Source: Sphingobacteriia bacterium
GTDB lineage: Bacteria; Bacteroidota; Bacteroidia; Bacteroidales; TTA-H9
Assembly (NCBI GenBank): GCA_021286705.1
Contig: JAJTBW010000001.1
Span: 9,325 to 73,324, forward strand
Reading direction: 5' to 3'
DNA: 64,000 nucleotides
The position numbers were made by a program, and so were the translations under genes. The notes beneath the pieces are model-generated. The model was not told the DNA's origin, made no database searches, and saw only the letters and a list, made by a program, of their open reading frames with translations. How positions within the stretch are numbered: the first letter of the stretch is position 1; each line of letters opens with the position of its first letter. Shown in pieces: positions 21,280-64,000 of the stretch.

Positions 21280-21282
21280 CAC

Positions 21283-22608: not shown

Positions 22609-22615
22609 TACAAAT

Positions 22616-39061: not shown

Positions 39062-39093
39062 TAGGTAGTTTTAAAAAAGTAACTATTGGGTTT

Positions 39094-40107: not shown

Positions 40108-40256
40108 GGTCTTGTTGAATTACTGATTTAATGCTTGGCAAGATAAATAAAAATCTAATTGTGCAGATTGATTGCACAGAGTCTAATTTCCTTTGCAATG
40201 TTTTACTGACTACATCGCAATAAATACTAATTGTTAACGATTTCATTTGAATACAT

Positions 40257-40553: not shown

Positions 40554-40561
40554 CACTAACA

Positions 40562-41140: not shown

Positions 41141-41141
41141 C

Positions 41142-44626: not shown

Positions 44627-44631
44627 CAATT

Positions 44632-45243
44632 ATGAAAGATATTACTTATAGCATAAAGTTTTATTCACAATGGCATTGCGGCTCGGGCGAATCGCAAGGA
44701 GCCGATTTAGATGCGCTCGTGATTAAAGATAGACAAGGGTTGCCTTATGTGCCCGGAAAAACCGTTAAAGGGTTGGTTAGAGACTCTTTTTTGGAACTTG
44801 ATATAATTGGTTACTTCGACCACAAGGGAAAGGAAATTGAGATCTTTGGTTGTGGTTATGACTATAAACAGAAACCTAAAACTGACGATGGTAAAAAGGA
44901 GCAGGGAATAATCAACCAATCTAGGCTTTATTTTAGTAATGCTGTATTAAAAAGTGTTGTGAAAGATGAGATTGAAAAAGCATCACTCATCCCATTTTTA
45001 TTTAATAAAGTGACCAGAACCTCAATTGACGAAAAAGGAGTGGCAAATGAAATGTCATTACGCTCCATGGAGGTTACTGTACCAGTGGCCCTAACTGGTA
45101 AAATATTAAATGTGGAAGATCAGTATGTAGATAGTATTATAGATGCTATGAAGTTTATTAAACGATTAGGTAGTGGCCGGAATCGTGGACTTGGTAGATG
45201 TTCATTTGAGGTGTTGAATATATCAGAAAGGAGGACTATATGA
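44632..45243 (+). CDS. cas7: Cas7-family RAMP (Csm3/Cmr4-like)
   Basis: WHCGSGESQGADLDALVIKDRQGLPYVPGKTVKGLVRD is followed by the C-terminal G-rich loop RLGSGRNRGLGRCSF. The start is taken at MKDITY, just after the cas10 stop. Confidence 0.75.
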   Translation: MKDITYSIKFYSQWHCGSGESQGADLDALVIKDRQGLPYVPGKTVKGLVRDSFLELDIIGYFDHKGKEIEIFGCGYDYKQKPKTDDGKKEQGIINQSRLYFSNAVLKSVVKDEIEKASLIPFLFNKVTRTSIDEKGVANEMSLRSMEVTVPVALTGKILNVEDQYVDSIIDAMKFIKRLGSGRNRGLGRCSFEVLNISERRTI

Positions 45244-46697
45244 AGACTATAACATTTGTATGTAAGTTTTTAAGCGATGTGGTGTTGACTACTTCAGCTG
45301 CAACTGAAGGGGTTCATGCTTCTTTGGATTATATTCCGGGAGCTGTGTTCCTTGGTATTGTGGCTAAGAGGTATGACTCTTTCAAAGAACTAAATGCTGC
45401 ATATGATATCTTTCATAGTGGTAAAGTTCGTTTTTCTGATGGTCAAATATACCTGAATGGTCAACGCTCATTTAAGACGCCTTTACTTTGGTCAGCCCCA
45501 AAGTCAGAAGGGAAGAGTGGTGTTTTGACTTTTAGCGCAGCATGTAATAAGGAGCAGATGGCTGACAATCTTGCAAAGGGTCTGCAATTTAAGCAAATGC
45601 GAGATGGTTATTTTGTTTTAAATGGCAATGATGCTATAAAAGTGGAAATCGAGAAGCAATTCGCCTTAAAGTCGGCTCAAGACCGTGAGACCAGAAGAGC
45701 AAAGGAAGGGAGTATCTTTGGTTTTGAGTCTATTGCAGCTGGAACGACCTGGTGTTTTAGGATCGATATTGATTCAAGTGTTGAGCATCTTTCTGATAAA
45801 ATTGTAAAGGCTTTAATTGGAGTGCATCATATTGGGAAAAGTCGTTCTGCTCAATATGGGCTTGTGCAAATTGATGAGATTAAGCCCCTAGAAGTAAAGG
45901 CAGAGCTTTTTAAGGATCTATTTATTTATGCTGATTCTAATCTTTGTTTTTTCAATGAGTTCGGTTCCCCTACGTTTACGCCAACCGTTGAACAGCTAGG
46001 ATTTAAAAATATGAAGATAGACTGGAAGCGTTCTCAGATTAGAACTTCTAGTTATTCTCCATATAATCAACATCGAAAGAATAGAGACCAGGAGCGACTT
46101 TGCATTTCAAAAGGCTCGGTCTTTGTACTTACCGGAGAAACACCTTCTAATCTACCTAACAGGGCATTTGTTGGAGAGTATTTGAATGAAGGGTTGGGGC
46201 AGGTTTACTTGAATCCTTGGTTCCTTAAGTATGATGAGAAAACTTGTGAATTTGAGTTGAAACTTGGGAAAACTCAAGAACCTGATTTACTGCAAGATTA
46301 TGCTGCTGGTGAAGCGAATCGTTTTGATCAGGCTTTGTTAGCTTACTTACGGACTAAAAAGTCAGAAATCGGGGATAGTTTTTATATTACAAATGCTGTA
46401 AATGAATTTGTCACTAAAGCTAATGAATTTAGAGGGATCACGAAGAGTCAGTGGGGTGCGATAAGAAGTATTGCTGAGTCAAGTAAAGATGCAGATGAAT
46501 TAATGAATCAGTTATTCAATAATAGTAACGCTTATTTAACCCATGGAATTGCTGCAAATGACTGGAAAGAGTATGGTAGGTGCGATAAACTGAAGAAAAA
46601 TCTGCTAGAAGTAAAAGGGACGCTTAATTTAAATGAATATACTGTTCTTCTAGCTTCAGAAATGGCAAAGAAATCAAATAGAGAAAATTATGAGTAA
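45240..46697 (+). CDS. csx10: Csx10-like (Cas5-family) RAMP
   Basis: 485 aa. The N-terminus is LSDVVLTTSAATEGVHASLDYIPGAVFLGIVA and a later loop is IGKSRSAQYGLVQI. The position after cas10-cas7 is as in type III-D loci. Confidence 0.55.
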   Translation: MKTITFVCKFLSDVVLTTSAATEGVHASLDYIPGAVFLGIVAKRYDSFKELNAAYDIFHSGKVRFSDGQIYLNGQRSFKTPLLWSAPKSEGKSGVLTFSAACNKEQMADNLAKGLQFKQMRDGYFVLNGNDAIKVEIEKQFALKSAQDRETRRAKEGSIFGFESIAAGTTWCFRIDIDSSVEHLSDKIVKALIGVHHIGKSRSAQYGLVQIDEIKPLEVKAELFKDLFIYADSNLCFFNEFGSPTFTPTVEQLGFKNMKIDWKRSQIRTSSYSPYNQHRKNRDQERLCISKGSVFVLTGETPSNLPNRAFVGEYLNEGLGQVYLNPWFLKYDEKTCEFELKLGKTQEPDLLQDYAAGEANRFDQALLAYLRTKKSEIGDSFYITNAVNEFVTKANEFRGITKSQWGAIRSIAESSKDADELMNQLFNNSNAYLTHGIAANDWKEYGRCDKLKKNLLEVKGTLNLNEYTVLLASEMAKKSNRENYE

Positions 46698-48159
46698 GAA
46701 TAATTTGAGATATATAGCAAGGATCGTTGTTGAAGCAGCAACTCCTTTAGTTGTCGGTTCCGGAGAGGAGGGGTTAACAATTGACAAGTTAATTGCTCGT
46801 GATGTAAACGGACTCCCCATTATACCTGGGTCTGCATTGGCTGGTGTTTTCAGACATGAGTACAGTGCAACTAATGGTAGTGAAAAGGAGAATTATCTTT
46901 TCGGTTATCAAAGTAATAATAATGGAGAAGGGTCTAGAATATTCTTCACCAACGCCCATTTTGTTGGATCAAAGGGTGTTGTTTATGAGGGTTTTGAGCA
47001 TTCAGAAGAGATAAAAACGGATAAATTCGCTGAAGTATTCAAACACCTACCTATACGTCAACATGTCTCTATTGATCATAAAGGGGTAGCTAAGGATGCT
47101 GGTAAATATGATGAAGAGGTATTGTTTAAAGGTACGAGGTTCTGTTTTGAGGTTGAAGCGATCGATATTAACGAGGAAGATTGGTTGTCTTTGCTAAACT
47201 TGTTAAAACAAGATAGATTTAGAATTGGGTCTGGAACACGTAAAGGTTTTGGTGCTTTATCGGTTGTTTCTGCTTCTGCATACACCTATGATTTTACCAA
47301 GAAAACAGATGTTGATTTGTATCTGGATAAGAAGGCTTCCCTCAATTATCCGGTAAATTACTTTAATCCAATTGATTTAGTTGAATCAACCCAGGAGACA
47401 GATGAGTATGTTTTGAGAATTAAAGCTGATAATTTTTTCTTGTTTAGTTCAGGTTTTGCCTCCTCTGATGCCGATATTAATCAGGTTATGGAGGATATAG
47501 TTGTGTGGGATGGGCTTATTCCTGATTTTAAAAAGAATCAGGTGCTTATTCCTGCGACATCCATAAAAGGGGCGATCTCTCATAGGGTTGCTTTCCATTA
47601 TAACAAATTAAAGGGAATTTTTGCTGAAAATATCCATTCTTCGAATCTAATTACTGAGCTAGTAAAGGATGAATCTTATTTTAAAACGCTGATTGATCGT
47701 GAGCATTTTAATAGTTCATCACTTACTTCTTCTGAGTTATTTATAAACTTCAATCCGGCTGTTAGAGGTCTATTTGGCTATTCTGAAAATCCCTGTGATG
47801 ATAAAGACAAGAATCGGTATCAAAAGAATCGTGGTAATGTCATTTTTAATGATCTCTACCTCGATGCAAAGTGTGAGGATTTTAAGGTCTTTAACCATGT
47901 ACGGATCGATAGATTTACTCAAGGCTCTTACGCTGGAGCACTATTCAATGAAAAGGTCGCTGGCATTGGTGGTGAGTTTGATTTAACGATGGCAGTAAAT
48001 AAGAATATTCATTCTGATTATATAAAGTGTTTTGAAAAGGCGTTGCTTGATATTGTTAACGGTATTCTTCCTTTAGGTGGAAGAACAATGCTTGGTCATG
48101 GCATGTTTAGTGGAAAATTGTTCAAAAATAAAACTGAAATTAGTTATGATTCATTATAA
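46690..48159 (+). CDS. Fusion of two Cas7-like RAMP domains
   Basis: Two RAMP units are present. Unit 1 is VVGSGEEG...NGLPIIPGSALAGVFRH ... RIGSGTRKGFGALSV. Unit 2 is IPATSIKGAISHRVAFH ... LPLGGRTMLGHGMFSG. Confidence 0.7.
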   Translation: MSKNNLRYIARIVVEAATPLVVGSGEEGLTIDKLIARDVNGLPIIPGSALAGVFRHEYSATNGSEKENYLFGYQSNNNGEGSRIFFTNAHFVGSKGVVYEGFEHSEEIKTDKFAEVFKHLPIRQHVSIDHKGVAKDAGKYDEEVLFKGTRFCFEVEAIDINEEDWLSLLNLLKQDRFRIGSGTRKGFGALSVVSASAYTYDFTKKTDVDLYLDKKASLNYPVNYFNPIDLVESTQETDEYVLRIKADNFFLFSSGFASSDADINQVMEDIVVWDGLIPDFKKNQVLIPATSIKGAISHRVAFHYNKLKGIFAENIHSSNLITELVKDESYFKTLIDREHFNSSSLTSSELFINFNPAVRGLFGYSENPCDDKDKNRYQKNRGNVIFNDLYLDAKCEDFKVFNHVRIDRFTQGSYAGALFNEKVAGIGGEFDLTMAVNKNIHSDYIKCFEKALLDIVNGILPLGGRTMLGHGMFSGKLFKNKTEISYDSL

Positions 48160-48565
48160 GCAACATAATACGTTAGAAACGTTACCAAACAAAGAGTATC
48201 ATGGTTATTTATGGTTTGCCGACTGTGAATTTCCTGAGGTGATTGATGGTTTTCTATCGGGAAAACTCATGAGTAGAGATAATACATTTATTGTAGAAGG
48301 AAATCTGATGTCAAAGGATAATTTAACTTCTGTATCCATTAAACAGGTAGGATCTACGCAGTTTATAATGGAATTCAATCATAAGGATATTTCTGAAGAT
48401 AGAGCTTTGCAATTTAATGATTTAACCTATATTCCTCATAAATTGCCTGGTTTTAAAGAGATTGTTTTTAGACAGGTTTGGATTGCTGAGAGTGATGAAA
48501 ATTGTTGTAATTGGCCTACTTACAGACCAAAGTATCAGTATTTTGTAGAACTTAAAAAAGATTAG
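48146..48565 (+). CDS. Small protein inside the effector operon (139 aa); occupies the position of cas11/csx19-type genes
   Basis: The ATG at 48146 overlaps the upstream stop by 14 nt. I recognise no motif, and the sequence does not look strongly helical. Confidence 0.4.
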   Translation: MIHYKQHNTLETLPNKEYHGYLWFADCEFPEVIDGFLSGKLMSRDNTFIVEGNLMSKDNLTSVSIKQVGSTQFIMEFNHKDISEDRALQFNDLTYIPHKLPGFKEIVFRQVWIAESDENCCNWPTYRPKYQYFVELKKD

Positions 48566-48567
48566 TC

Positions 48568-50883
48568 ATGGTTTTAATGAAAGCACCTTTTAATTTTGTC
48601 CCATTAAATCAACATGTCTACTATCCTGATTGGGCAGAACAAGTTTCTCAAGATATTCCTTTCAGCGATGGTTTGAGCGGCCAAATAGAGTTGACTATCG
48701 AGGCGGAGAGTCCTATCTATATTAGAAATGGTTTCTCGGTTAATGAGTTAAAATCTGAGAATAAATCTGGGGATTTTGTCTCTAATAGTTTTTGGAATTT
48801 TAATGGTCAGTATTTTATTCCTGGCTCAAGTCTCAAAGGAATGATTCGCAATATTTTTGAGATTATAAGCTTTAGTAAGATGCCAACTGATCCAAGAATG
48901 CGTTTTGCCAGAAGAGACATGTTAGCAAATAATAGGAGTAATATTTATCCTCTTAAGAATATTACGGAACAAAAGGAAATTCGCTGTGGGTGGTTGTCTA
49001 TGAATGATAATTCTTATGTAATTAAAGATTGCGGACATCCATATAGAATTAGTCATAAAGAGCTTGATAAAATTTTTGGTTCTGAGTTATTTGAGAATCA
49101 TTTTTCCAAAGTAAAAGGCAAGGATTTGTCAAAGCCTATAGACCGCTTAAATCCTAAGATGGCTAAATTTAAATATAAACTCATTGAAAAAAATGGATTG
49201 AGCAAATATTTGAAAGGCTCTTTTGTAAAAGATGAAGCCAATAGAAAAGCTACTTACGAGGATGGAAAAGGGAGTCGTGGTGAAATAGTATTTACTGGCC
49301 AGCCAGATAGATGGGATTTTCCTAGAAATAAAGATAGCAAAGGAAAATTTAACGAGTTTGTGATTTTTGAAGATGAGCTTGGTTCAGACTATAAGATTTC
49401 GAGAGAGGTCTTTAATCAATACAACTTCTTTATGGATGATTCTGAAGATTGGCTTTATTGTCTATCCAAGATAAAAGAGGGTAATAGGTATCCTGTTTTT
49501 TTTCGTTTCGAATCAGAAGAGTCAGAAGAGGCTAAGAAAGTTAAAGACTTTGGATTGGCATTTATGTATCGCCTTCCATATATAAAAGGGGTCTCACAGT
49601 TAGTCGATGAGTTTCAAGAGCCCAATGGAATTGATTTAGCTGAGGCTGTTTTTGGATTTACTGAACTTAAGAAAGTTAAACTAGAAAGGAATAAGAAGGT
49701 TGTTGAGAAAATAAATGGGTCCTTAAAATCAAGGGTTCATTTTGGGCATGCCTTTGCTGAGGCAAATTCTATTACTCTGGCGGATCAGATTACAGGATGT
49801 TTGGCGGGACCTAAAGCGTCTTATTATCCCATTTATATTAGGCAACGGGAGGTGGATCCGGATAAAGGAAAGTATTACCAGACTTATGATAATGGCGTGA
49901 TTAGTGGCTGGAAGCGATATCCCTTAAAGGAGAGTGTTCAACTATTACCTAAAATCGGAGATAAAATGGATACGACCTTCGTTCCTGTTGAAAAGGGGGC
50001 GAAGTTTTCGGGAAAGATTACTTTTCATAATTTACGTCCGATAGAATTGGGATGTTTGTTATCTGCAATAACTTTTCACAACAATCCAGAGTACCGTCAC
50101 TCTTTAGGGATGGCAAAACCTTATGGCTATGGAAAAGTAAAGATTGAATCCAAGTTGAAGGTTTTTGATGAGAATAGTCTAGATATTGATGGTTATCTGG
50201 TAGCCTTTGAGAAGAAAATGAATGAGTTCTTAGCAACTAAGAGGTTGGGTAAGTGGTTTTCAACAGAGCAGATTGAAGAGTTATTTGCGATGGCCGACCC
50301 CAAGCGGGTTAATAAGGAAAATTCTGATCAACTTAACTATCTTAACCTTGGTGGAGGCAATGCTGGAGCAAATGAATTTCTGAAGATTAAAAAGCAAAAC
50401 GATTTCCTACATCCTTTTACCTCTGTATTTAAAGGCGGGACTTCAAGAGTTAGTCCGTTGGATTCTTATTTAGCTCGTGAAAAAGCTAATCAGGAAAAAA
50501 TGGAAGAGGAGGCTCGGGAAGCTGAGAAGCGTATGATTGAGGAGCAAGAGATGCAACGTAAGCTTGCCGAACAAGATCGATTAGATAATAAAAAACAGGA
50601 ATACCTTGAACAAGGGCTGGCTCTTTTTCTTAATTCACCTTCGTTTAGCCGATTTTTGGATAAGTGTGATGACTATAAAAAGAAGTTACAGCTAGAGGTT
50701 ATTCCAGAAGATCAACATGGTATAATCATACAAGTCATTGAGTCTTTCAATAAAACCGACAAGGAATTTTTAAAAGAAACAAGAAAAGGTGGCTTCGAGA
50801 AAGGTCGATCTTGGCTTCGATTGCAAAAGCTAATAGGAGAGAAACCTGCTTATAAGATGTTTCAATTGATCTCCAATCCATAG
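48568..50883 (+). CDS. Large RAMP protein (Cas7/Csm5-like, TIGR03986-like) with insertions and a K/E-rich coiled-coil C-terminal extension
   Basis: The N-terminus is APFNFVPLN...LSGQIELTIEAESPIYIRNG...FIPGSSLKGMIRN, and the G-rich loop is SLGMAKPYGYGKVKI. The C-terminal ~170 aa begin EKANQEKMEEEAREAEKRMIEEQEMQRKLAEQDRL. Confidence 0.65.
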   Translation: MVLMKAPFNFVPLNQHVYYPDWAEQVSQDIPFSDGLSGQIELTIEAESPIYIRNGFSVNELKSENKSGDFVSNSFWNFNGQYFIPGSSLKGMIRNIFEIISFSKMPTDPRMRFARRDMLANNRSNIYPLKNITEQKEIRCGWLSMNDNSYVIKDCGHPYRISHKELDKIFGSELFENHFSKVKGKDLSKPIDRLNPKMAKFKYKLIEKNGLSKYLKGSFVKDEANRKATYEDGKGSRGEIVFTGQPDRWDFPRNKDSKGKFNEFVIFEDELGSDYKISREVFNQYNFFMDDSEDWLYCLSKIKEGNRYPVFFRFESEESEEAKKVKDFGLAFMYRLPYIKGVSQLVDEFQEPNGIDLAEAVFGFTELKKVKLERNKKVVEKINGSLKSRVHFGHAFAEANSITLADQITGCLAGPKASYYPIYIRQREVDPDKGKYYQTYDNGVISGWKRYPLKESVQLLPKIGDKMDTTFVPVEKGAKFSGKITFHNLRPIELGCLLSAITFHNNPEYRHSLGMAKPYGYGKVKIESKLKVFDENSLDIDGYLVAFEKKMNEFLATKRLGKWFSTEQIEELFAMADPKRVNKENSDQLNYLNLGGGNAGANEFLKIKKQNDFLHPFTSVFKGGTSRVSPLDSYLAREKANQEKMEEEAREAEKRMIEEQEMQRKLAEQDRLDNKKQEYLEQGLALFLNSPSFSRFLDKCDDYKKKLQLEVIPEDQHGIIIQVIESFNKTDKEFLKETRKGGFEKGRSWLRLQKLIGEKPAYKMFQLISNP

Positions 50884-50993: not shown

Positions 50994-52094
50994 ATGAAGG
51001 ATAAATCTCTCATTCGAAATGTTGTGATGCTTTTGGTCTCAGATCAACCAGTGTCAAATCTATTGTTTTGTAGAAATCTTGACTTGGAAATTGATGAAGT
51101 CGTGCTTTTTACGACCACAAAGATGGAGCGAAGTGGAGTTACAGATAATCTAATAAACGTACTTAACTTAACCTGTGAAATAAAGAGAATAGTTATATCT
51201 AATACAGATTATCTGGATGCCTATTCTTTATTAAGTGAGATTAAAAGTGATGGCCAGAGGCTTCTTGTGAATTTAACTGGAGGTAATAAGATTATGGCTA
51301 TGGCTGTTTATGATGCTTTTAGAGATCATGGTGGGTGTCGTTTTTATTATAGTCCGGTGGGTGGTGATTTATTCACATGTTTCAATGACCCAGATGCGTC
51401 ATTTTCTATTAGAAGGAATCTAAATGTATCTGAGTATTTGAACTCATACGGCATTGGTTTTAACCATTCTGAGAATTGTATCGCTAACTTTAAGGAGGCG
51501 GAAATGATCATGCGGTTACACCAAAAATATAAATTTAATAGAAGAAGAGTGCTGAATTATTTGGAGTCCAATAAAAGTGATTATGTCGAGTTCAAGAAGT
51601 ACTATGAAGGGGGCTGGTTTGAGGAATATTTGTATTATTCTATAAAAAAGCACTTGAATTTAGGCGATGATGAGATCTATTTAGATGTTGAACTGATAGC
51701 TGATCAAGAGACTGGTAGAGTAGTTAATGAGTTAGATGTAGCATTTGTATATAAGAGTGATCTGTATATTATAGAAGCTAAAGCGAATGTTACATCAAGA
51801 GGCGTATATAATATTAACCCACTTGAAAGCAGTCGTCCAAAGGTTAGTGTGGCCGACGACAAGCCGTTAGGTCAATACTTGTATAAGCTTGCTGCTGTTA
51901 ATAAGTTACTTGGTATACGTACTCAATGTGTATTAGCTACCTTAACAGATCTTCGTTCTGGTGGTGAGGACTTTAACAGAACACTTCAAGACAGAATGAA
52001 AATTCTTGATATTCATCATTTAATTGATAGATATGAATTTATTAACGATGAAAATTTTAGTAAACGAATAAATTATTTAGTAAAAAACTTTTAG
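50994..52094 (+). CDS. CARF + PD-(D/E)xK nuclease, Card1/Can2-like (DUF1887-type), copy 1
   Basis: The N-terminal Rossmann-like CARF is VMLLVSDQPVSNLL...VNLTGGNKIMAMAV. The C-terminal nuclease motif is ELDVAFVYKSDLYIIEAKAN. Confidence 0.7.
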   Translation: MKDKSLIRNVVMLLVSDQPVSNLLFCRNLDLEIDEVVLFTTTKMERSGVTDNLINVLNLTCEIKRIVISNTDYLDAYSLLSEIKSDGQRLLVNLTGGNKIMAMAVYDAFRDHGGCRFYYSPVGGDLFTCFNDPDASFSIRRNLNVSEYLNSYGIGFNHSENCIANFKEAEMIMRLHQKYKFNRRRVLNYLESNKSDYVEFKKYYEGGWFEEYLYYSIKKHLNLGDDEIYLDVELIADQETGRVVNELDVAFVYKSDLYIIEAKANVTSRGVYNINPLESSRPKVSVADDKPLGQYLYKLAAVNKLLGIRTQCVLATLTDLRSGGEDFNRTLQDRMKILDIHHLIDRYEFINDENFSKRINYLVKNF

Positions 52095-52096
52095 TT

Positions 52097-53302
52097 ATGA
52101 AAAAACTTTTGGTTAATTTAATTAGCGAGCAGACCATTCCAGTTTTGCTTTCTATAAATTCATTTCCCGAGGCGAAGCATCATCTGTTTATTACAACTCG
52201 AAAAATGGAGGATGCTGAGACAGGACGGCGAAGTTTATGGTTAAAAAAGGCAGCTAATTTGGATCCTGTTAATGTTGTGGTGACAGAGGTTTTGGCTGAT
52301 GATTATAATGATATTATGGCTAAGCTCGGATCTGAGCAGATGGAGGATTATTATAAGGAGTTTGATGAGATTATTGTTAATATTACAGGTGGAAATAAGC
52401 TGATGTCTATCGCTGTGAATGAATTTTTTAAGGGAAAAACAGAGAATATCTACTATTTGCCAATTCATAATGAAACATACGTTATTCCTAATAACCCATT
52501 GTATAAGAAGACAGTTAACTCATTGCTGAGTATCGAGACCTATTTAGGTGCCTGTGGTTTGCATAAGACTGATAAACGTGTTTCCTTTAAGCAACCACTT
52601 AACTCTCCTCGGGCATTTACATTTGAGGAGTTGGAGCGACTATTAGGTGAGTTTTTGGTAAATGAGGAGCTAAGAGCCAAGAGTGAGCGGTTAAGATTAC
52701 TGTTTAGAGCAGATGATTCTGTATATCGATTTAAAAAGGACAAATTGGATTATTCTGTTTTGCCGGAAGCAGATGAGATAGATGAGATATTAACTAGTTT
52801 TGGGTTCTCACCTGATGAAATGATTGGGAAGAAGACGGTGGATTTTATCACGGGTGGTTGGTATGAAGAATATGTATACTATTTAGTTTGCAGTATGTTT
52901 GAGAAGGAGGGATTAGTTCCTGTGGGTTATGACTTAGAAGATTTTGTGAAAATTGGAGTGCAATTATCACCTAAAGCTGGTGATGAATTTAAGGCTAAGT
53001 ATTTTACTTCTAATGACCTTGACGTTATATTCATTCTTAATTCGAAGCTATATGTTATCGAATGTAAAAGTGGCGGAATGGATAAGACGTATGACTATAA
53101 TAGAACTGTATATATGCAAAGTGCTCTGAGGAAATATTTTGGACTGAGTGTTACTTCAGTTTTATGTACATTGTCTTCTGTAAGCGAGGAAAATATGGAG
53201 AAAGCGAAGGTTTTTGGAATAAAAGTATTAGACAAAAGTTATTTTGCTAATTCTATCAATGAAAAAAGCATAAAAGATTTTTCACAATCAAAGAGAGATT
53301 AA
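52097..53302 (+). CDS. CARF + PD-(D/E)xK nuclease, Card1/Can2-like, copy 2
   Basis: The CARF is LVNLISEQTIPVLL...VNITGGNKLMSIAV and the nuclease motif is DLDVIFILNSKLYVIECKSG. It starts 2 nt after copy 1. Confidence 0.7.
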   Translation: MKKLLVNLISEQTIPVLLSINSFPEAKHHLFITTRKMEDAETGRRSLWLKKAANLDPVNVVVTEVLADDYNDIMAKLGSEQMEDYYKEFDEIIVNITGGNKLMSIAVNEFFKGKTENIYYLPIHNETYVIPNNPLYKKTVNSLLSIETYLGACGLHKTDKRVSFKQPLNSPRAFTFEELERLLGEFLVNEELRAKSERLRLLFRADDSVYRFKKDKLDYSVLPEADEIDEILTSFGFSPDEMIGKKTVDFITGGWYEEYVYYLVCSMFEKEGLVPVGYDLEDFVKIGVQLSPKAGDEFKAKYFTSNDLDVIFILNSKLYVIECKSGGMDKTYDYNRTVYMQSALRKYFGLSVTSVLCTLSSVSEENMEKAKVFGIKVLDKSYFANSINEKSIKDFSQSKRD

Positions 53303-53682
53303 TGCTAATCAATATATCAAATCATTCATGTACTAGTTGGGGATTAGATCAGTTAAATACTGCCAAGAGCAAGTGGAGTCGTGTGGTTGATTTATTAAGT
53401 CCGATGATTCCACCCGAAGCAGGTGTTAATGATCTAATCCCTGTCGTAAATGATTATGTCAAAAAGGTTCAAGAAATTGCAAAACTGGAGAAAGAGGGCA
53501 CTGTATTTATTCATGTTATGGGCGAATTAACATTTACATTTATGGTGATAGCAAAGCTTCAGCGGGAAGGATTTCAATGTGTAGCTAGCACGACCAAGCG
53601 GGATGTTATCGAAGAGAATGGAATTAAACTTAGTGAGTTTAAATTTGTTCAGTTTCGAGTATTTCCAAAATTCGATGAATAG
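53302..53682 (+). CDS. Small CRISPR-linked protein of unknown function (126 aa)
   Basis: It overlaps the upstream stop by 1 nt (TAATG). The sequence is LINISNHSCTSWGLDQL...FIHVMGELTFTF. It might be Csx20-like, but I cannot verify that. Confidence 0.45.
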   Translation: MLINISNHSCTSWGLDQLNTAKSKWSRVVDLLSPMIPPEAGVNDLIPVVNDYVKKVQEIAKLEKEGTVFIHVMGELTFTFMVIAKLQREGFQCVASTTKRDVIEENGIKLSEFKFVQFRVFPKFDE

Positions 53683-54025: not shown

Positions 54026-55009
54026 ATGGAGCTAATATTAAATAGTTTTGGTACAACTTTATCGAGGGAGAATGACCAATTTGCAGTGTCACATGCTGAT
54101 GGTAAACAATTGATTCATCCTTCAGAAATCAAATGCATTTCTATAAGTAAAGGGGCAAGAATAACTTCTGATGCCGCACTGCTTGCTATCGATAATGAGA
54201 TAGATGTACTGTTTATTGATAAAAAGGGGATGCCAAAAGGGCGCATCTGGAGTTCAAAATATGGTTCAATCAGTACAATAAGAAGAAAGCAGTTAGATTT
54301 TACCTTCAATGAGATGGCTGTAGAATGGATAAAGGATGTTATACGCCAGAAGTTAGAGAATCAGATTGCTTTGCTTTATAGTAGTTGCCCTGTTGATCGA
54401 TTAAATGATGTCTCTTTCAATAGATTATTGAATCGGATAAAAGACTATTCGGTTAAGATTGAAGGTCTTAATGGTGGGATTGTTCAGGACGTAGCTTCCT
54501 CGTTAAGGGGCTGGGAAGGTGCTGCAGGAAAGATATATTTTGAGACGTTATCAACGTTTTTGCCAGAAGAGTATAAGTTTCAAGGAAGGAGTCAAAATCC
54601 TGCTGTTGATTTGTTCAATGCATTATTAAATTATGGTTATGGGATATTGTATGGCAAGATAGAGGGTGCAATGATCAGAGCAGGGATTGATCCTTATGTA
54701 GGTGTTTTTCATCGTGACGATTATAACAGGCCAGTGTTGGTCTTTGATGTGATAGAGTTATATAGAGTCTGGGTGGATTATGTTGTTTTTAATTTATGTA
54801 AACAGAAGGCTATCGGGGAGGAGTGCTATAGTAGGCGCCCTGATGGTTCCGTTTGGTTGGAGATTCTTGGAAGAAGAATTCTTATTCAATCGATCAATGA
54901 CTATTTTGATGAAGTTATACTCATTAAAGGACTTGAAAGAACGCGACTTACGCATTTGGAATTGTATTGTCAGAATCTAGCTCAGTATTTTTTAAAAGGG
55001 AAGTGGTAA
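54026..55009 (+). CDS. cas1: Cas1 integrase
   Basis: 327 aa with EGAAGKIYF, NALLNYGYGILY and GIDPYVGVFHRDDYNRPVLVFDVIELYR, the conserved E/H/D catalytic region. Confidence 0.9.
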   Translation: MELILNSFGTTLSRENDQFAVSHADGKQLIHPSEIKCISISKGARITSDAALLAIDNEIDVLFIDKKGMPKGRIWSSKYGSISTIRRKQLDFTFNEMAVEWIKDVIRQKLENQIALLYSSCPVDRLNDVSFNRLLNRIKDYSVKIEGLNGGIVQDVASSLRGWEGAAGKIYFETLSTFLPEEYKFQGRSQNPAVDLFNALLNYGYGILYGKIEGAMIRAGIDPYVGVFHRDDYNRPVLVFDVIELYRVWVDYVVFNLCKQKAIGEECYSRRPDGSVWLEILGRRILIQSINDYFDEVILIKGLERTRLTHLELYCQNLAQYFLKGKW

Positions 55010-55010: not shown

Positions 55011-56018
55011 ATGTTAATGCGTGGAAAAAATATAACGGCCAGTGGTGACCCGTTACAACCGATTGAATTAACTCACTTTTTTAGATCTATTGTCAATCCT
55101 ACAGAGGAGCTTATACAACGAATAGATCAATTACGCATAGTGAGTACCTTGGATCAGGTGAGGTATCGTCAGCTAAAGACAACCTTGCCCTATGTGGTTT
55201 GTGGCAGTTATCATCCTGCTATCAGGAAGACCTCCAGTTTTGCATCCATTGAGTGTTTTATCCTCGATTTTGACCATCTAAACAGTAAAAATATTGAAAT
55301 AAAAGATTTCAAGGCGAAGATGCGAGAGGATTCCAGAATCTTGATGCTTTTTGAATCGCCGAGTGGAGATGGATTAAAAGTGTTGTTTAAATTAGATGAA
55401 AAATGTTATGATCCTGGTGTATATAGGCTGTTTTATAAACTATTCGCAAAGAGCTTTTCTATAGAATATGGTTTAGATCAAGTAGTAGATGAGCGGACAA
55501 GTGATGTTACTAGAGCTTGTTTTTATAGTTATGATAGAGATGCATGGTTAAATGAGGCAGTCACTCCAATAAAAATATCGAATTACCTTAATTTGGAAGA
55601 GATAAGTCAGGTAGATGCTTTATTGAAAGAAATTAGAAACGATGTCAAGGAGGAAAAGAAGGAGGAACGTGAGGCAAAAGTAAGTGCATCAGCTGATACA
55701 TTAAAGGAAATAAGATCCATGCTCCTACCTAAGGCTAGGCCGATTGAGAAGGATGTGTTTGTTCCAGAAGAACTTAAGGGGCTTGAAGAAATGATTAAGG
55801 TTAGATTGGAGAGTACCCCGATTAAGGTCGTGTCTAGTGAATCTATCCAATATGGCAAGAAGGTGAAATTTGAAATGGAGACCGTAAAGGCTGAGGTAAA
55901 TGTATTTTATGGCAAGAAGGGTTTCTCGGTTGTTTCAACAACTAAGACAGGGACAAATCCGGAGTTTGCACAGTTATGTAAGGAATTGCTTGAAGATCTG
56001 TTGATACATCGGAGTTGA
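55011..56018 (+). CDS. Primase-polymerase (AEP superfamily, VirE-N/BT4734-like) encoded between cas1 and cas2
   Basis: The DxD motif is FILDFDHL, the SxxGxG motif is FESPSGDGLKVLFKL, and a further motif is DVTRACFYSYDRD. It starts 1 nt after the cas1 stop and ends just before cas2. Confidence 0.65.
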   Translation: MLMRGKNITASGDPLQPIELTHFFRSIVNPTEELIQRIDQLRIVSTLDQVRYRQLKTTLPYVVCGSYHPAIRKTSSFASIECFILDFDHLNSKNIEIKDFKAKMREDSRILMLFESPSGDGLKVLFKLDEKCYDPGVYRLFYKLFAKSFSIEYGLDQVVDERTSDVTRACFYSYDRDAWLNEAVTPIKISNYLNLEEISQVDALLKEIRNDVKEEKKEEREAKVSASADTLKEIRSMLLPKARPIEKDVFVPEELKGLEEMIKVRLESTPIKVVSSESIQYGKKVKFEMETVKAEVNVFYGKKGFSVVSTTKTGTNPEFAQLCKELLEDLLIHRS

Positions 56019-56031
56019 TTTGTGTTTTTTT

Positions 56032-56496
56032 ATGAAGAAGAGTAGCGAATTGACTTTTGTTCGGAAGGTACTTGCTTTAAAGAAGGCAGGTATTGGTATT
56101 AGTCCTCCGATTATTCAAGAACAGGAGGAGTTAATTTCTTTAGAAGAGCGATGTCAAAAGTTATTAGGTATCGTAAGAGAAAGGAGGAAGTCAACAGATA
56201 TGGTTTTCTTTGTGATGTATGATATTGAAAATGATAAAGTTCGCCGATATGTTTCAAAGTACTTGGAGAAAAAGGGATATTTAAGAGTCCAGAAGTCGGT
56301 CTTTCTTGGCAAAGCAGATCGAAATGAGTTTAATAAAGTAGGCGATACTTTGAGAAAGGTGAATGAGATCTATGAAAATGAAGATAGTATAGTGCTAATC
56401 CCGGTTTCTAGCGATGAGTTGACAAGCATGGAGTTGATAGGGAAAGATGTGAATATAAAAGCCTATTATGATAAACCTGGAACTCTGTTTTTTTAG
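56032..56496 (+). CDS. cas2: Cas2 with ~55-aa N-terminal extension
   Basis: The core MVFFVMYDIENDKVRRYVSKYLEKKGYLRVQKSVFLG is a typical Cas2 beta1-alpha1-beta2. The ORF opens at TTG 56020 and the first ATG is at 56032. Confidence 0.85.
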   Translation: MKKSSELTFVRKVLALKKAGIGISPPIIQEQEELISLEERCQKLLGIVRERRKSTDMVFFVMYDIENDKVRRYVSKYLEKKGYLRVQKSVFLGKADRNEFNKVGDTLRKVNEIYENEDSIVLIPVSSDELTSMELIGKDVNIKAYYDKPGTLFF

Positions 56497-56619
56497 TACC
56501 TTTGTTATTAGGTGGAATTAGTATACTTTTGCAATCCCAAAAAAATGAGGTACAGAGTGATTTTTTTTAGATCTTTTTGTTCTTATGGTATTGAAAGTAA
56601 AGTAGATGCAATGGGTGCT
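56497..56619 (+). promoter_or_regulatory. CRISPR leader (AT-rich) with a Bacteroidota-type -7 box candidate
   Basis: This is the 123 nt between cas2 and the first repeat. TACTTTTG at 56524-56531 fits the TAnnTTTG consensus. A- and T-runs are also present. Confidence 0.5.
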
Positions 56620-59600
56620 CTGAGGAACCCTCTTCCAGAATAATAAGGATTAAGACAAATTACTTACTTGATAATTTGGAAACTCAATAATTGCTGAGGA
56701 ACCCTCTTCCAGAATAATAAGGATTAAGACTATTATCACGCTGTTCGAGTTGGAATATTACTTCTCTACTGAGGAACCCTCTTCCAGAATAATAAGGATT
56801 AAGACTCCGCACTAGTCGTTCTATCCATATCATACTTAATCCTGAGGAACCCTCTTCCAGAATAATAAGGATTAAGACTTCCTTGTTACATCTGGACTCT
56901 CGAAGAGACATAAACTGAGGAACCCTCTTCCAGAATAATAAGGATTAAGACTCTATGTTCCTTGTTACATCTGGACTCTCGAAGAGACATCTGAGGAACC
57001 CTCTTCCAGAATAATAAGGATTAAGACCTTCTAGCAAGTTTTCTGCCGCTGTATCAGCGACAGCTGAGGAACCCTCTTCCAGAATAATAAGGATTAAGAC
57101 ACTAAATAATTGTTCTAAAGATTGTACTAAGTTAGCTGAGGAACCCTCTTCCAGAATAATAAGGATTAAGACTGAACGAGAGAGCTAGGTTTGGTTCCGA
57201 AATCTTTAACTGAGGAACCCTCTTCCAGAATAATAAGGATTAAGACTGAATAACACTTTTGCTTCAGTTGGAGAAGATTCTGAGGAACCCTCTTCCAGAA
57301 TAATAAGGATTAAGACTTGTTATGAATCTCAACTCTTGGGCACAGTTGTGAGCTGAGGAACCCTCTTCCAGAATAATAAGGATTAAGACACCCTCTTTAT
57401 TTTGCGCTTCAGTATTATTTATTGCCTGAGGAACCCTCTTCCAGAATAATAAGGATTAAGACGGAGCTTTAATGTCAGTACCTTCAGCGAGGCTTAAAGC
57501 TGAGGAACCCTCTTCCAGAATAATAAGGATTAAGACCCCTTCTTTTGCTTTAAATTCAGCCAAAGAAACAACACCTGAGGAACCCTCTTCCAGAATAATA
57601 AGGATTAAGACACCTTCTTTATTTTTTCTTTGGTGATTATAACTATATCTGAGGAACCCTCTTCCAGAATAATAAGGATTAAGACTCTGCAAGAGGTATC
57701 TTATAATCCTATATGTGGATCTGAGGAACCCTCTTCCAGAATAATAAGGATTAAGACGTCTGAACCCCTTCTTTTGCTTTAAATTCAGCCAAACTGAGGA
57801 ACCCTCTTCCAGAATAATAAGGATTAAGACAGTTTATTACCTTCAATTATTTCTTCTTTAGTCATCTGAGGAACCCTCTTCCAGAATAATAAGGATTAAG
57901 ACCCTTAACACTACCAGCCTCTACGAAGTAGAGGAAAATGCTGAGGAACCCTCTTCCAGAATAATAAGGATTAAGACTTCATTTACGCTGAATGTTTGTT
58001 GAAGTTATTTAAAGCTGAGGAACCCTCTTCCAGAATAATAAGGATTAAGACAACGAATAAAAGCTCTTCCGTGAATCTTGGCATTCTGAGGAACCCTCTT
58101 CCAGAATAATAAGGATTAAGACAAGTAAAGATAGATGCTAATACTAGCATCCTTTTTAGTTCTGAGGAACCCTCTTCCAGAATAATAAGGATTAAGACCA
58201 CTTTTATAGTGCCTGCTTCAACGAAATATAAGAAACTGAGGAACCCTCTTCCAGAATAATAAGGATTAAGACTCTTAGTTGGGAATTTCCCAACAGGAAT
58301 AACTTTCCTGAGGAACCCTCTTCCAGAATAATAAGGATTAAGACAGTTACAGTTGTTGTTGTAGTGTACACAACAAAAGACTGAGGAACCCTCTTCCAGA
58401 ATAATAAGGATTAAGACTCCTGACAATCTGGCTTACAATAAAGAAAACAAACCTGAGGAACCCTCTTCCAGAATAATAAGGATTAAGACGAGGAAAATAC
58501 TAACTTTAGGATCTTTCTTGGTAGCTGAGGAACCCTCTTCCAGAATAATAAGGATTAAGACCCAGTTGCAACACTGATGTTCCAATAATCTCCTGATTTC
58601 TGAGGAACCCTCTTCCAGAATAATAAGGATTAAGACACTAACCAAAGGCAATCGTCTTTAAATTCATTAAGATTCTGAGGAACCCTCTTCCAGAATAATA
58701 AGGATTAAGACCAACAGGAATAACTTGTACTTTCATAACAATTCTACTGAGGAACCCTCTTCCAGAATAATAAGGATTAAGACCCTTTTTCTTATTCTGC
58801 ATTCAGGAGTTCCACTTCAAGTCTGAGGAACCCTCTTCCAGAATAATAAGGATTAAGACTTGATATACTTGCTTAGTATAATTACAATATTGAAACCTGA
58901 GGAACCCTCTTCCAGAATAATAAGGATTAAGACCTGTTTGTATCTTGCGATAGCGTTGCATTTTTTAAATCTGAGGAACCCTCTTCCAGAATAATAAGGA
59001 TTAAGACTTCGACGTAGCCGGATGGCATCGCAATAGTTGGATCGCCTGAGGAACCCTCTTCCAGAATAATAAGGATTAAGACATGATAGCAACGTATAGG
59101 CCGGCTGCGTTTCCGGGGTCTGAGGAACCCTCTTCCAGAATAATAAGGATTAAGACAGCACCTGTTGCAACGGAGATATTCCAATAATCCCCCTGAGGAA
59201 CCCTCTTCCAGAATAATAAGGATTAAGACCCTGTTGAATAACTGCTTTACATAATCTTTGTCTAACCTGAGGAACCCTCTTCCAGAATAATAAGGATTAA
59301 GACAGCTTACTACTTTTTGTAAGCTTTCCTTTTCTTCATCTGAGGAACCCTCTTCCAGAATAATAAGGATTAAGACGGAACTAGCACGCACTTTCACAGT
59401 GCCAGCCTCTACTGAGGAACCCTCTTCCAGAATAATAAGGATTAAGACACACTCATGTACACTCTCAATTAACTAATTTACAAGCACTGAGGAACCCTCT
59501 TCCAGAATAATAAGGATTAAGACGAGGAGCCGAAGCCCCTCCGGGTTATTTTAAATCTCTGAGGAACCCTCTTCCAGAATAATAAGGATTAAGACTCTTC

Positions 59601-62600
59601 ACATGCTGAATTAATAGCTGCATCCTCAGTGCTGAGGAACCCTCTTCCAGAATAATAAGGATTAAGACGACCTTTGGGAGAGGTAGATCGTGTAAACTTT
59701 TTACACTGAGGAACCCTCTTCCAGAATAATAAGGATTAAGACCAATGGCGAATGTGTTCTCTGAATCGTCCTTTACTCCTGAGGAACCCTCTTCCAGAAT
59801 AATAAGGATTAAGACATAACAAGGGCGATAATTAGTTTAATCATTTTGTCCTGAGGAACCCTCTTCCAGAATAATAAGGATTAAGACATGCTATTATATC
59901 GTCTCCACAACGTTTAGTAGGATCGCTGAGGAACCCTCTTCCAGAATAATAAGGATTAAGACGTAGCAACTTAAGTGCTTTGTCTGGATATTTCATAAGG
60001 CTGAGGAACCCTCTTCCAGAATAATAAGGATTAAGACTAAGTTTTCTATATACATATGCCAATCCGTCTTTCTCTGAGGAACCCTCTTCCAGAATAATAA
60101 GGATTAAGACTCAAAGATGAAGTTGGTATGCATATCTACATACCATCTCCTGAGGAACCCTCTTCCAGAATAATAAGGATTAAGACAGGAAGAGGCACGT
60201 ACTTTAACACTGCCAGCCTCTCTGAGGAACCCTCTTCCAGAATAATAAGGATTAAGACATTACGTAAGATTTTGATACTACTGGATAATTTCTGAGGAAC
60301 CCTCTTCCAGAATAATAAGGATTAAGACTGTATATGAAGTACTGTTTTCATAATCTTCACATTTCACTGAGGAACCCTCTTCCAGAATAATAAGGATTAA
60401 GACTATGTATAGAATTTTGGCTGCAACCCAATTGGAGATCTGAGGAACCCTCTTCCAGAATAATAAGGATTAAGACTGTAGGTAGTTTCTTCTTTATAAG
60501 CTTTATAATAACTGAGGAACCCTCTTCCAGAATAATAAGGATTAAGACTAAAGGTAAATACTAATTTTAGGATCTTTTTTTAGTACTGAGGAACCCTCTT
60601 CCAGAATAATAAGGATTAAGACTGTTATTGTTATTTTGGATTGTTGCATTTTACACCTAACTGAGGAACCCTCTTCCAGAATAATAAGGATTAAGACTCA
60701 ATTACACCATCAGTTAAAATTAATTCCAATAGCTGAGGAACCCTCTTCCAGAATAATAAGGATTAAGACAGTTCTCTTACTGATTATGGCTGAATCAGAC
60801 CCAGGCTGAGGAACCCTCTTCCAGAATAATAAGGATTAAGACTTCTTCAGAAAACTCTTTAGGAGAATATTCTTGTTTACTGAGGAACCCTCTTCCAGAA
60901 TAATAAGGATTAAGACAACCTCAGAAATGTATAATTGTTTGGATTGTTGTGCTGAGGAACCCTCTTCCAGAATAATAAGGATTAAGACCATTTCACTCCT
61001 CGATAAAGTACTAAACATTCCAGCTGAGGAACCCTCTTCCAGAATAATAAGGATTAAGACAAACCACTTGGATTAGGATCAGTAAAATTGGTTTCTACTG
61101 AGGAACCCTCTTCCAGAATAATAAGGATTAAGACCCTCGTAGACTTCTTCATAACCCTCTTCTAATAAGACTGAGGAACCCTCTTCCAGAATAATAAGGA
61201 TTAAGACATTGGGGTATTTACGCTTTTCGTAATTCAACTTAGCGCTGAGGAACCCTCTTCCAGAATAATAAGGATTAAGACCTGCACCGATAAGGCGCCT
61301 GCCTGACAGATTGACGACACTGAGGAACCCTCTTCCAGAATAATAAGGATTAAGACACCGCTTGTTTGGCGAACTTGTAAGCCTTGGTTCCTGAGGAACC
61401 CTCTTCCAGAATAATAAGGATTAAGACCTGTTGTTTTCGTACTGATCCAGAAGCACTTCTAAAAGCTGAGGAACCCTCTTCCAGAATAATAAGGATTAAG
61501 ACTCATCATATTCCCTTGTAAGGGATCCCTTTAATATGCTGAGGAACCCTCTTCCAGAATAATAAGGATTAAGACCATTCCTTGCCGTATTTTGCCACGA
61601 ATTTTTGACCGCTGAGGAACCCTCTTCCAGAATAATAAGGATTAAGACTTACCTATTATTTCACATACTTCTTTATCCAATGTACTGAGGAACCCTCTTC
61701 CAGAATAATAAGGATTAAGACATTATTTACAATGAATCTTTGAATAGCTTGGCGGAAAACTGAGGAACCCTCTTCCAGAATAATAAGGATTAAGACTTTT
61801 TTGGATTGTTATTTTGCATTTTACACCTAAAACTGAGGAACCCTCTTCCAGAATAATAAGGATTAAGACCTACTATTCTCATAGTCTTCACAAAGGACTT
61901 CAAAAGACTGAGGAACCCTCTTCCAGAATAATAAGGATTAAGACCGCCACTAATTTAGTTAATTGTTCTTTTTCCTTTTCTGAGGAACCCTCTTCCAGAA
62001 TAATAAGGATTAAGACCGCTAACAGATATGCGTTTCATTATCTGTGATCCGGCTGAGGAACCCTCTTCCAGAATAATAAGGATTAAGACTCATAACTCAT
62101 TGATTAACCGTTTAAGAAACTCAACTGAGGAACCCTCTTCCAGAATAATAAGGATTAAGACCATCTTTTACATTGTGTTTATAATAGGAGTTTATGGACT
62201 GAGGAACCCTCTTCCAGAATAATAAGGATTAAGACTCTCGTTGTACTGGTATTTACCAAAGTTTGTTAAGATACTGAGGAACCCTCTTCCAGAATAATAA
62301 GGATTAAGACGCCCAGTTTTCAGTTTATTGAGATGAATATCAAGGTCTGAGGAACCCTCTTCCAGAATAATAAGGATTAAGACCTCCAAACAGATATTTA
62401 TGTATAGTTTTTGTATTTCTGAGGAACCCTCTTCCAGAATAATAAGGATTAAGACAATTAACCCCTTTTTTTATTCAGCAGGATTCAGCAACCTGAGGAA
62501 CCCTCTTCCAGAATAATAAGGATTAAGACGGGTTGAAATCTGCGAGGTAATTGTAGGTAGTATAACTGAGGAACCCTCTTCCAGAATAATAAGGATTAAG

Positions 62601-64000
62601 ACTATTAGTCTATTTTCTCTTACACAATCTGCTACATTGCTGAGGAACCCTCTTCCAGAATAATAAGGATTAAGACGTTACTTGTGTCATGTTTGTGTGT
62701 GTTAAGGAGAGCCTGAGGAACCCTCTTCCAGAATAATAAGGATTAAGACTTTGACCTACGTAAACGTAAAACTTTTTGTCCATCCTGAGGAACCCTCTTC
62801 CAGAATAATAAGGATTAAGACTCGTCGGCTATTCTTGTCATATCTGTGTTTGTTTTAAAGAACTGAGGAACCCTCTTCCAGAATAATAAGGATTAAGACA
62901 TTTAACAGTTCGGCTACTAGCCTTCTTAGCGCTCTGAGGAACCCTCTTCCAGAATAATAAGGATTAAGACATCAGCCATTTTAGAATAGCTAATCTCTTT
63001 ACTAGCTGAGGAACCCTCTTCCAGAATAATAAGGATTAAGACCCGGACAAGATACCTTTTCGGTATCCTGCACCTAAACTGAGGAACCCTCTTCCAGAAT
63101 AATAAGGATTAAGACTTCACATAATGCTCTTCAAAAGAAAGAGCAAAGTTTGCTGAGGAACCCTCTTCCAGAATAATAAGGATTAAGACTAACTATATTT
63201 GTTAGTCCAGAATTAGTAGCTGCTATACTGAGGAACCCTCTTCCAGAATAATAAGGATTAAGACTTCACCAGTTAGGATACCTTTAACATAACCAGTACC
63301 AACTGAGGAACCCTCTTCCAGAATAATAAGGATTAAGACCAATAACTAAGGTCTCATCCTGAATATCCAATTGTGGGCTGAGGAACCCTCTTCCAGAATA
63401 ATAAGGATTAAGACAGGCGGCTTCGAGTTCAAAGCGCACTTTCACCTTTGCCTGAGGAACCCTCTTCCAGAATAATAAGGATTAAGACTGGAAGCTGCCG
63501 TAGACATAGTTAGCAGGTACTGCGCTGAGGAACCCTCTTCCAGAATAATAAGGATTAAGACTCAAGATACATAGATTTTATTCTTTCAGTCGATCTACTG
63601 AGGAACCCTCTTCCAGAATAATAAGGATTAAGACTTTATGTGCAACAGAAATGATGCACATTTATGTAGATCTGAGGAACCCTCTTCCAGAATAATAAGG
63701 ATTAAGACCCATTGATTAGTATGTCAATCAACGCTGCCTGATGCCACTGAGGAACCCTCTTCCAGAATAATAAGGATTAAGACGAAGTAGAGGAAGATGT
63801 TAATACTAGCATCTTTTTTACTGAGGAACCCTCTTCCAGAATAATAAGGATTAAGACAATTCTCTATTGTAAGAAGAAGCTCTGACTTTTACTCTGAGGA
63901 ACCCTCTTCCAGAATAATAAGGATTAAGACCGCTGTATCTGCGACAGACTCGTGTGCGTCTATCGCGACTGAGGAACCCTCTTCCAGAATAATAAGGATT
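56620..64000 (+). CRISPR. CRISPR array: 100 complete + 1 truncated copies of the 37-bp repeat CTGAGGAACCCTCTTCCAGAATAATAAGGATTAAGAC; 100 spacers of 33-41 nt; continues beyond the window
   Basis: Every repeat boundary was located by hand, from the first at 56620-56656 to the last complete one at 63894-63930. All copies appear identical. The repeat 3' end ATTAAGAC resembles the AUUxxxAC 8-nt crRNA tag of type III systems, giving + strand orientation. Confidence 0.97.

Follow-up and report, generated by a model that had tools for sequence, protein, structure and literature searches.

Spacers in the array of a III-D-like CRISPR locus from Bacteroidota lie in the orientation predicted to pair with transcripts of a crAss-like phage

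The 64,000-nt stretch of DNA analysed here (contig JAJTBW010000001.1 of assembly GCA_021286705.1, from a Bacteroidales bacterium of the TTA-H9 lineage), referred to below as the window, contains a III-D-like CRISPR locus whose adaptation genes include a CRISPR-associated primase-polymerase (CAPP, or Prim-Pol) together with cas1 and cas2. The array of this locus holds 100 spacers in the window, of which 16 were mapped to related phage contigs. All 16, as written on the + strand, correspond to the phage's minus strand, and all the genes called in the targeted block are on its plus strand. The reading that we consider probable is that the spacers of this system are nearly all complementary to transcripts, and that the bias was produced by selection, as it is elsewhere among type III systems. 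Such a bias is already known from the literature, to which this locus adds a well-documented case.

The entry point for mapping was a codon-degenerate pattern for LAEFKAKEGV, the peptide of spacers S13 and S16, which picked out one IMG/VR contig. An 84-aa plus-strand open reading frame (ORF1) of that contig holds the S13 peptide (12/12 residues) and the S16 peptide (11/11), with that of S12 further on (7/10). ORF1 is taken to be a real gene because it has 56 homologues, at 78-100% identity, and because the in-frame nucleotide differences between S13 and the phage (contigs L012 and L011) are all synonymous and at third positions. Related phage loci were gathered from the contigs of the ORF1 homologues and then by walking downstream.

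Three spacers are antisense to ORF1: S12 (57463-57499; 36/37 nt in L019), S13 (57537-57574; 36/37 nt in L018) and S16 (57758-57793), whose protospacer overlaps that of S13 with a 10-nt shift. Four were placed in the interval between ORF1 and ORF2 or in the 5' untranslated region (UTR) of ORF2. S97 (63709-63746) matches 34/34 nt in the interval (L019 7506-7539) and S31 (58860-58896) matches 37/37 nt at L017 67-103, 45-81 nt upstream of the ORF2 start, both in the same orientation as the others; S71 (61797-61832; 20/20 nt, L018 3273-3292), which is in one family with S55 and S59, is antisense, as is S55 (60623-60660; 23/23 nt, L017 126-148), which covers 5' UTR sequence together with the A of the start codon of ORF2. 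Within ORF2 (104-108 aa) lie the antisense spacers S73 (61945-61979; 33/35 nt, L017 191-225), S72 (61870-61907; 37/38 nt, L017 310-347) and, at the 3' end, S96 (63635-63671; 37/37 nt, L017 419-455). S51 (60329-60366) was placed in ORF2 by a protein-level match (CEDYENS...); its site is that of S72, in a different variant of the phage. ORF3 (82 aa) contains the sites of S53 (60477-60511; L013 12449-12483, within the first 5-40 nt of the ORF) and S76 (62162-62198; 33/37 nt, L013 12531-12567), both antisense. Upstream of ORF3 are those of S52 (60404-60439; L013 12283-12318), antisense to the ORF block, and S79 (62384-62418; 31/35 nt, L013 12307-12341), in the same orientation. Finally, S78 (62311-62346) matches 36/36 nt in each of L013, L016 and L017, again in the same orientation, in a highly conserved block with a 28-aa plus-strand mini-ORF. 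The matches of S31, S96 and S78 are thus perfect over the full length of the spacer. All the spacers are given as they stand on the + strand of the window.

Reversed spacers, used as decoys, matched no more than 17 nt in the phage loci. The 16 mapped spacers represent about 12 distinct sites, for which the two-sided probability of the common orientation is about 5e-4. A sequence-only reading of the window had proposed that the spacers are the antisense strand, with crRNAs (CRISPR RNAs) that pair with mRNA, and that real protospacers should be scored by strand against annotated genes; that scoring gave 16 of 16 antisense to the co-directional ORF block, which supports the proposal for the mapped spacers. 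In 14 alignments from 13 mapped spacers, which is a small sample, no conserved flank resembling a protospacer adjacent motif (PAM) was seen, so the orientation does not appear to be set by a PAM. In the same alignments no protospacer had the full GTCTTAAT next to it, and the 3' flanks were not complementary to the crRNA handle.

Two placements were rejected. The reverse complement of S55 and S71 could be read as a gene start (ATG CAA...), but mapping puts it in the 5' UTR. A 16-nt match of S21 in L018 was set aside as chance, since a reversed decoy reached 17 nt and no family A peptide is encoded there. Other searches gave no targets. All 100 spacers, concatenated, produced only two chance matches against cultured phages (blastn) and none against plasmids, and nothing above 15-17 nt was found for self-targets in the rest of the window. 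Codon-degenerate patterns for spacer families D, G and F had no match in IMG/VR. The FLYFVEAG family of spacers (below) found no target in pattern, metagenome and protein-set searches: the family A pattern gave six IMG/VR matches, all chance by translation, the family was not found in JGI metagenomes, and its X-padded peptide yielded no candidate in a set of 5.8 billion proteins. The exact S78 protospacer was not found in IMG/VR or JGI metagenomes.

Related spacers give a second, internal measure of the coding strand. The reverse complements of S27 (58562-58599) and S35 (59157-59192) encode KSGDYWNISVAT(G) and GDYWNISVATGA, respectively. The two overlap by 32 nt, in which 6 nt differ (GGA/GGG, AAC/AAT, AGT/TCC, ACT/ACA). 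In the reverse-strand frame both encode the peptide GDYWNISVATG, free of amino-acid changes and stops. On the forward strand even the best frame carries two changes and two stops, and S27 is open in none of its forward frames. When six random substitutions were simulated, a fully synonymous, stop-free frame arose in 0.06% of trials (about 6e-4). The codon differences listed for this pair in the sequence-only reading were exact, and so was its statement that, read as reverse complements, the two differ at synonymous sites only. The AGT/TCC difference is a three-base serine switch, and a second serine switch, AGT/TCT, separates S38 from S49 of the FLYFVEAG family.

That family has eight members, S18 (57903-57940), S21 (58123-58161), S22 (58199-58235), S26 (58490-58524), S38 (59377-59411), S49 (60187-60221), S54 (60549-60585) and S98 (63784-63820), and the single orientation claimed for it was seen in 8/8. 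The pair S6 (57028-57063) and S100 (63931-63968) fared less well. The 17-nt overlap with one mismatch, GCT/GCA in the frame VADTA, is as had been described, but the same mismatch is also synonymous (TCA/TCT, serine) in an open forward frame, and the pair is therefore uninformative on strand. An all-against-all comparison of the spacers gave nine families, A to I, of which family I (S83/S85) was weak and was left out of the links. The eight families A-H contribute 15 same-orientation links and no opposite one; the best opposite-orientation pair scored 12.5, the level of the shuffled null (12). In a six-frame test families D, A and H favoured the reverse strand as sense. Two further pairs share long identical stretches, S4 and S5 (56879-56990) with 33 nt at a 6-nt shift and S13 and S16 (57537-57793) with 28 nt at a 10-nt shift. 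They look like independent acquisitions from nearly the same target spot, lying close together in the array.

Composition was used for the array as a whole. A count of stop-free frames did not separate the strands (154 vs 154). The spacers are T- and pyrimidine-rich on the + strand, with T exceeding A in 66 and the reverse in 27. Trained on the codon usage of 39 window ORFs, a classifier was right for 79% of 36-nt fragments of host genes and for 77% of random windows of Flavobacterium phage 11b. It labelled 72 of the 100 spacers antisense, which corresponds to a maximum-likelihood antisense fraction of 0.88 (0.72-1.0), or 0.85 (0.67-0.99) with families collapsed. Six of the 16 mapped spacers were labelled 'sense' by the classifier, so the figure of 72% is an underestimate.

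The label 'antisense' depends on the direction in which the array is transcribed, predicted to be rightwards from a leader on the cas2 side. The array (56620-64000, + strand) consists of 100 identical 37-nt repeats, CTGAGGAACCCTCTTCCAGAATAATAAGGATTAAGAC, a cut 101st copy, and 100 spacers of 33-41 nt, and it continues past the end of the window. It follows cas2 on the strand of the cas genes, separated from that gene by a 123-nt leader (56497-56619, + strand). The leader contains a promoter-like match, TTTG-N19-TAnnTTTG, at 56501-56531; this is weak on its own, as a scan of the window gave five matches vs 2.2 expected. The consensus is the Bacteroidetes/Bacteroides-type promoter. The 3' end of the repeat is ATTAAGAC, which resembles the usual 8-nt crRNA handle. 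Rightward transcription is argued for by the repeat end, the position after cas2 on the same strand, the promoter match, degenerate far-end repeats in a related contig, and the strand bias itself. The contig in question, Logan contig L001 (SRR17235526), has 3609 nt of cas genes identical to the window, followed at 3610-5008 by an array of few repeats, with spacers not in the window and degenerate repeat copies at the far end. Its short array is either a collapse of the short-read assembly that joined leader to trailer, which is probably the case, or a strain with a much shorter array. The repeat showed no significant fold and no Rfam match, and its sequence was not found in species-representative genomes.

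All 16 mapped spacers fall in one block of small co-directional ORFs of about 2.6 kb (L013 10150-12570; L017 60-750). None maps to the adjoining 9.5 kb of conserved portal/terminase/chaperonin packaging genes, a leftward block with genes for a portal protein, a large terminase, a GroEL-like chaperonin, a metallophosphoesterase and an HNH endonuclease. With an even distribution of sites along L013, all twelve would lie within 3.7 of its 13.7 kb with a probability of about 1.5e-7. The small-ORF block is divergent from the packaging genes, and from this layout it is probably the early region, transcribed as a single rightward unit; sigma-70 and Bacteroidetes promoter scans of the block were uninformative. 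Several sites are close to ORF starts, with S13/S16 and S53 beginning 5-16 nt into their ORFs and S73 43 nt in. The mapped spacers extend from position 12 to position 97 of the array, and the same site was taken by differing sequence variants in S51/S72, S55/S71 and S52/S79, from which it follows that the region was sampled repeatedly over time. The terminase shares about 41% identity with its counterparts in crAss-like phages, for which Bacteroides, Flavobacterium and Cellulophaga are listed as hosts. The target is thus an uncultivated crAss-like phage, and a Bacteroidota host agrees with the nearest relative of the Prim-Pol and with the known range of class B CAPPs.

Some further features of the phage contigs were observed. 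From a dozen independent samples, contigs (L011, L012, L014 and L020-L028) end about 25-750 nt downstream of ORF1, and the contigs that read through (L013, L017, L018 and L019) are mosaic, with stretches of about 100% identity beside unalignable segments. Together these look like a hypervariable region that coincides with the CRISPR-targeted block. A stretch of about 230 nt (L013 11655-11885, L017 670-900) has one difference between phages that are otherwise about 80% identical. Within it lie the target of S78 and two mini-ORFs, of 28 and 37 aa, and it is more conserved than the neighbouring coding gene. Next to the targeted block, at the divergent junction itself, one variant (L019) carries an additional 105-aa gene (5596-5913, minus strand) whose product has a Tad2-like domain (PF11195). 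Proteins of the Tad2-like family are signalling-nucleotide sponges, and the gene may be an anti-defence gene. The chaperonin is full-length and GroEL-like (L013 5915-7507, minus strand; 530 aa, phrog_5725, PF00118).

Several points weigh against a nearly complete, transcript-directed bias that was shaped by selection. Eighty-four spacers are unmapped, and composition alone bounds the antisense fraction to about 0.67-1.0. Among the unmapped, S9 (57247-57279), S15 (57686-57720) and S25 (58418-58452) have better reading frames on the forward strand, and S40 (59524-59558) has on that strand a GC hairpin followed by a T-run, like a terminator. The claim that the spacer is antisense wherever the coding strand can be deduced therefore stands for the mapped spacers and is too strong for the others. 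Of the mapped sites themselves, seven of 16 are outside ORFs of at least 80 aa, either in a 5' UTR or between ORFs. The direction of transcription is a prediction from sequence for the array and the phage block alike, and the role given to selection is carried over from III-A systems lacking a Prim-Pol. Lastly, a single co-directional block holds all the protospacers, and mapping alone cannot split an orientation antisense to transcripts from one tied to a strand of the phage DNA. If the bias followed the DNA strand, through the polarity of injection, replication or free ends, the spacers would be 'antisense' only through the co-directional genes; the confinement to about 2.6 kb would fit, and the many contigs that end just beside the block could mark a genome end. 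However, L013 and L016-L019 read through the break point, so there is no fixed end, and the codon classifier and the synonymous tests score coding sense and find the same bias in unmapped spacers and in unrelated families such as D, A and H. We regard a bias set by the DNA strand as very unlikely.

For a transcript-directed bias, selection after orientation-blind integration is the most likely cause, judging from published work, and on that record no novel machinery is needed to explain the bias. Spacers of natural type III arrays favour pairing with mRNA, at 65% on average and 88% at most, the maximum being in Moraxella III-B (PMC8482600); the 16/16 found here, for mapped spacers only, is at the top of that range. 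In Streptococcus thermophilus nearly all the spacers of natural III-A arrays are in the mRNA-pairing orientation, and on deletion of csm1-6 new spacers integrate 53/47, which places the origin of the bias in selection (PMC8860593). Acquisition in III-A systems concentrates just downstream of early phage promoters and 10-50 bp into ORFs, a preference that does not depend on interference (PMC13575424). The present clustering, with its sites at ORF starts and in 5' UTRs, fits that picture of hotspots.

The sequence of events that we propose begins with rightward transcription of the array, which would give crRNAs consisting of the 8-nt handle AUUAAGAC followed by the + strand of the spacer. As nearly all the spacers would be the reverse complement of the target coding strand, such crRNAs would pair with phage transcripts. 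Pairing is predicted to trigger the short Cas10's GGDD cyclase, and the resulting signal would in turn activate the two Card1/Can2-like nucleases. Of the 100 spacers, 16 or more come from one block of a crAss-like phage, sampled repeatedly and across phage variants. Cas1-Cas2 would integrate DNA fragments either way round, and only lineages with a transcript-complementary crRNA would survive infection. A hotspot of acquisition associated with transcription may also contribute to the clustering.

The sequence-only reading had also linked the bias to the Prim-Pol, for which the present data give no support, near-complete bias being present in III-A arrays that lack this gene (PMC8860593). The Prim-Pol may still have a role in orientation, which a natural array, having already passed through selection, cannot test. 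In the form that such a role would take, a Cas1-PrimPol-Cas2 module would acquire directionally, the bias would precede selection and the polarity of the intermediate would fix the orientation of integration. The Prim-Pol might, for example, prime on and copy DNA left single-stranded by transcription, for instance the non-template strand that an R-loop displaces in the early region. The Prim-Pol gene is flanked by cas1 and cas2, and CAPPs prime and extend on single-stranded DNA and have been proposed to act in adaptation (PMC8211822). The 16 mapped spacers, antisense without exception, concentrate in 5' UTRs and at the starts of ORFs, like the transcription-dependent hotspots of PMC13575424, and there is no PAM to set their orientation. 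Yet equal bias and hotspots occur in III-A systems without a Prim-Pol, where integration is orientation-blind in the absence of interference (PMC8860593, PMC13575424), the natural array cannot separate the two models, and no biochemical link between CAPP and polarity of integration is reported in PMC8211822. Directional acquisition is accordingly thought unlikely. The fuller proposal, in which the Prim-Pol makes adaptation intrinsically directional and transcription-coupled by turning exposed single-stranded DNA of the early region into prespacers that keep their polarity, is quite improbable. If true, it would mean that a DNA-only module achieves what reverse transcriptase (RT)-Cas1 fusions were thought necessary for.

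Less likely still is the copying of spacers from RNA, in which the Prim-Pol would serve for reverse transcription where other systems use RT-Cas1 and the orientation would follow the transcript. The strong bias and the clustering of targets in a block that is probably highly or early transcribed would suit such copying, and since there is no RT at the locus another polymerase would be needed. However, both of the CAPPs that have been assayed strongly prefer DNA, with poor extension and inefficient priming on RNA (PMC8211822). Even RT-Cas1 systems are reported to integrate either way round (PMC5576922), and S31, by its distance from the start codon, may lie outside the transcript. Selection acting on spacers integrated either way round remains the reading that we prefer.

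The cas genes are all on the + strand. cas6b (42488-43156) is followed by a gene for a Cas10-like protein (43160-44626) which is unusually short, at 488 aa, and has a palm2 domain (PF22335, E 2e-13) with an IGGDD motif; an HD domain was not detected in it by the domain scan. It is accompanied by two tandem Card1/Can2-like effectors. RAMP/Cas7-like and Cas5-like effector subunits occupy 44599-50883, with RAMP matches for four ORFs; in this segment one protein matches TIGR03986 at 272 bits and another TIGR04423 at 66 bits, both above the cut-offs of the models. The two Card1/Can2-like nucleases (50994-53302) each have CARF and nuclease domains and are probably activated by cyclic oligoadenylate. 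A small Csx20-like protein (53302-53682) gave a weak match. Cas10 with GGDD, the RAMP backbone beside cas10 and the CARF effectors mark the locus, by its gene content, as type III. The TIGR03986 and TIGR04423 proteins, which we take to be Csx10 and Csx19, and the short Cas10 without HD fit III-D, in which such subunits accompany several Cas7-like genes and Cas10 often has no HD, and the locus is best called III-D-like.

The adaptation genes are cas1 (54026-55009), the Prim-Pol gene (55011-56018) and cas2 (56020-56496), in that order and with overlaps or gaps of 1-2 nt. The Prim-Pol matches NF040562 over its full length at 375 bits, against a cut-off of 200, and also matches PF08800. By this match it is a class B CAPP in one operon with the cas1 and cas2 of a type III locus, and its nearest relative among species-representative genomes is from a Bacteroidales metagenome-assembled genome. 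Cas1 is stand-alone, 327 aa, with a Cas_Cas1 domain only, and no reverse transcriptase domain was present in any of the 40 window ORFs scanned against Pfam. The earlier description of a III-D-like locus with a Prim-Pol gene and without RT-Cas1 was thus borne out.

The array resembles other natural type III arrays (Vink et al. 2021, PMC8482600; PMC8860593; PMC13575424; for Thermus thermophilus PMC7515739) in its mRNA-pairing orientation. It is like them, too, in having no PAM with its own cas1-cas2, a restricted and probably early target block with sites near ORF starts, and repeated sampling. It differs from the published arrays in its setting, a Bacteroidota III-D-like locus whose adaptation genes include a Prim-Pol, and in its target, an uncultivated crAss-like phage. 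Early expression of the present target block is predicted, from layout. The Prim-Pol belongs with the DbCAPP type of class B (Zabrady et al. 2021, PMC8211822), in that it passes the NCBIfam equivalog, lies between cas1 and cas2 and belongs to a type III locus of Bacteroidota, class B CAPPs being almost exclusively found in Bacteroidetes (PMC8211822). The CAPPs of that study showed DNA-dependent priming and polymerisation and were proposed to act in adaptation, not in control of orientation. RT-Cas1 type III systems (Marinomonas mediterranea III-B, Vibrio vulnificus III-D) also have an extra polymerase in the adaptation module and need transcript-complementary spacers, but this locus has no RT, a plain Cas1 and a Prim-Pol of the AEP family, which is poor on RNA.

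The main value of the locus is confirmation of the bias in a lineage and subtype not looked at before (Bacteroidota, III-D-like, with a CAPP module). The targeting of one small-ORF block along the whole array would extend the early-gene preference described for type III adaptation to a natural and distantly related system, and the spacer mapping provides a host link for an uncultivated crAss-like phage. These additions, and the case itself, are new but modest. The locus is also a reasonable choice for asking whether a CRISPR-associated Prim-Pol influences the choice or orientation of spacers, a question that sequence alone cannot answer.

The surroundings of the locus (14311-24196 and 37619-42119) resemble a defence island, with genes for two dynamin-family GTPases, an HSP70-like ATPase, two double-GTPase proteins, a peptidase C39-like protein, a RecD/Pif1-like helicase, a WYL regulator on the opposite strand and a DUF4407 protein. 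Tandem repeats unrelated to CRISPR are found at 518-631 (18/36-nt unit), 3457-3676 (a TTGAATC-based 7/35-nt array) and 6487-6654 (a 33-nt unit, five copies).

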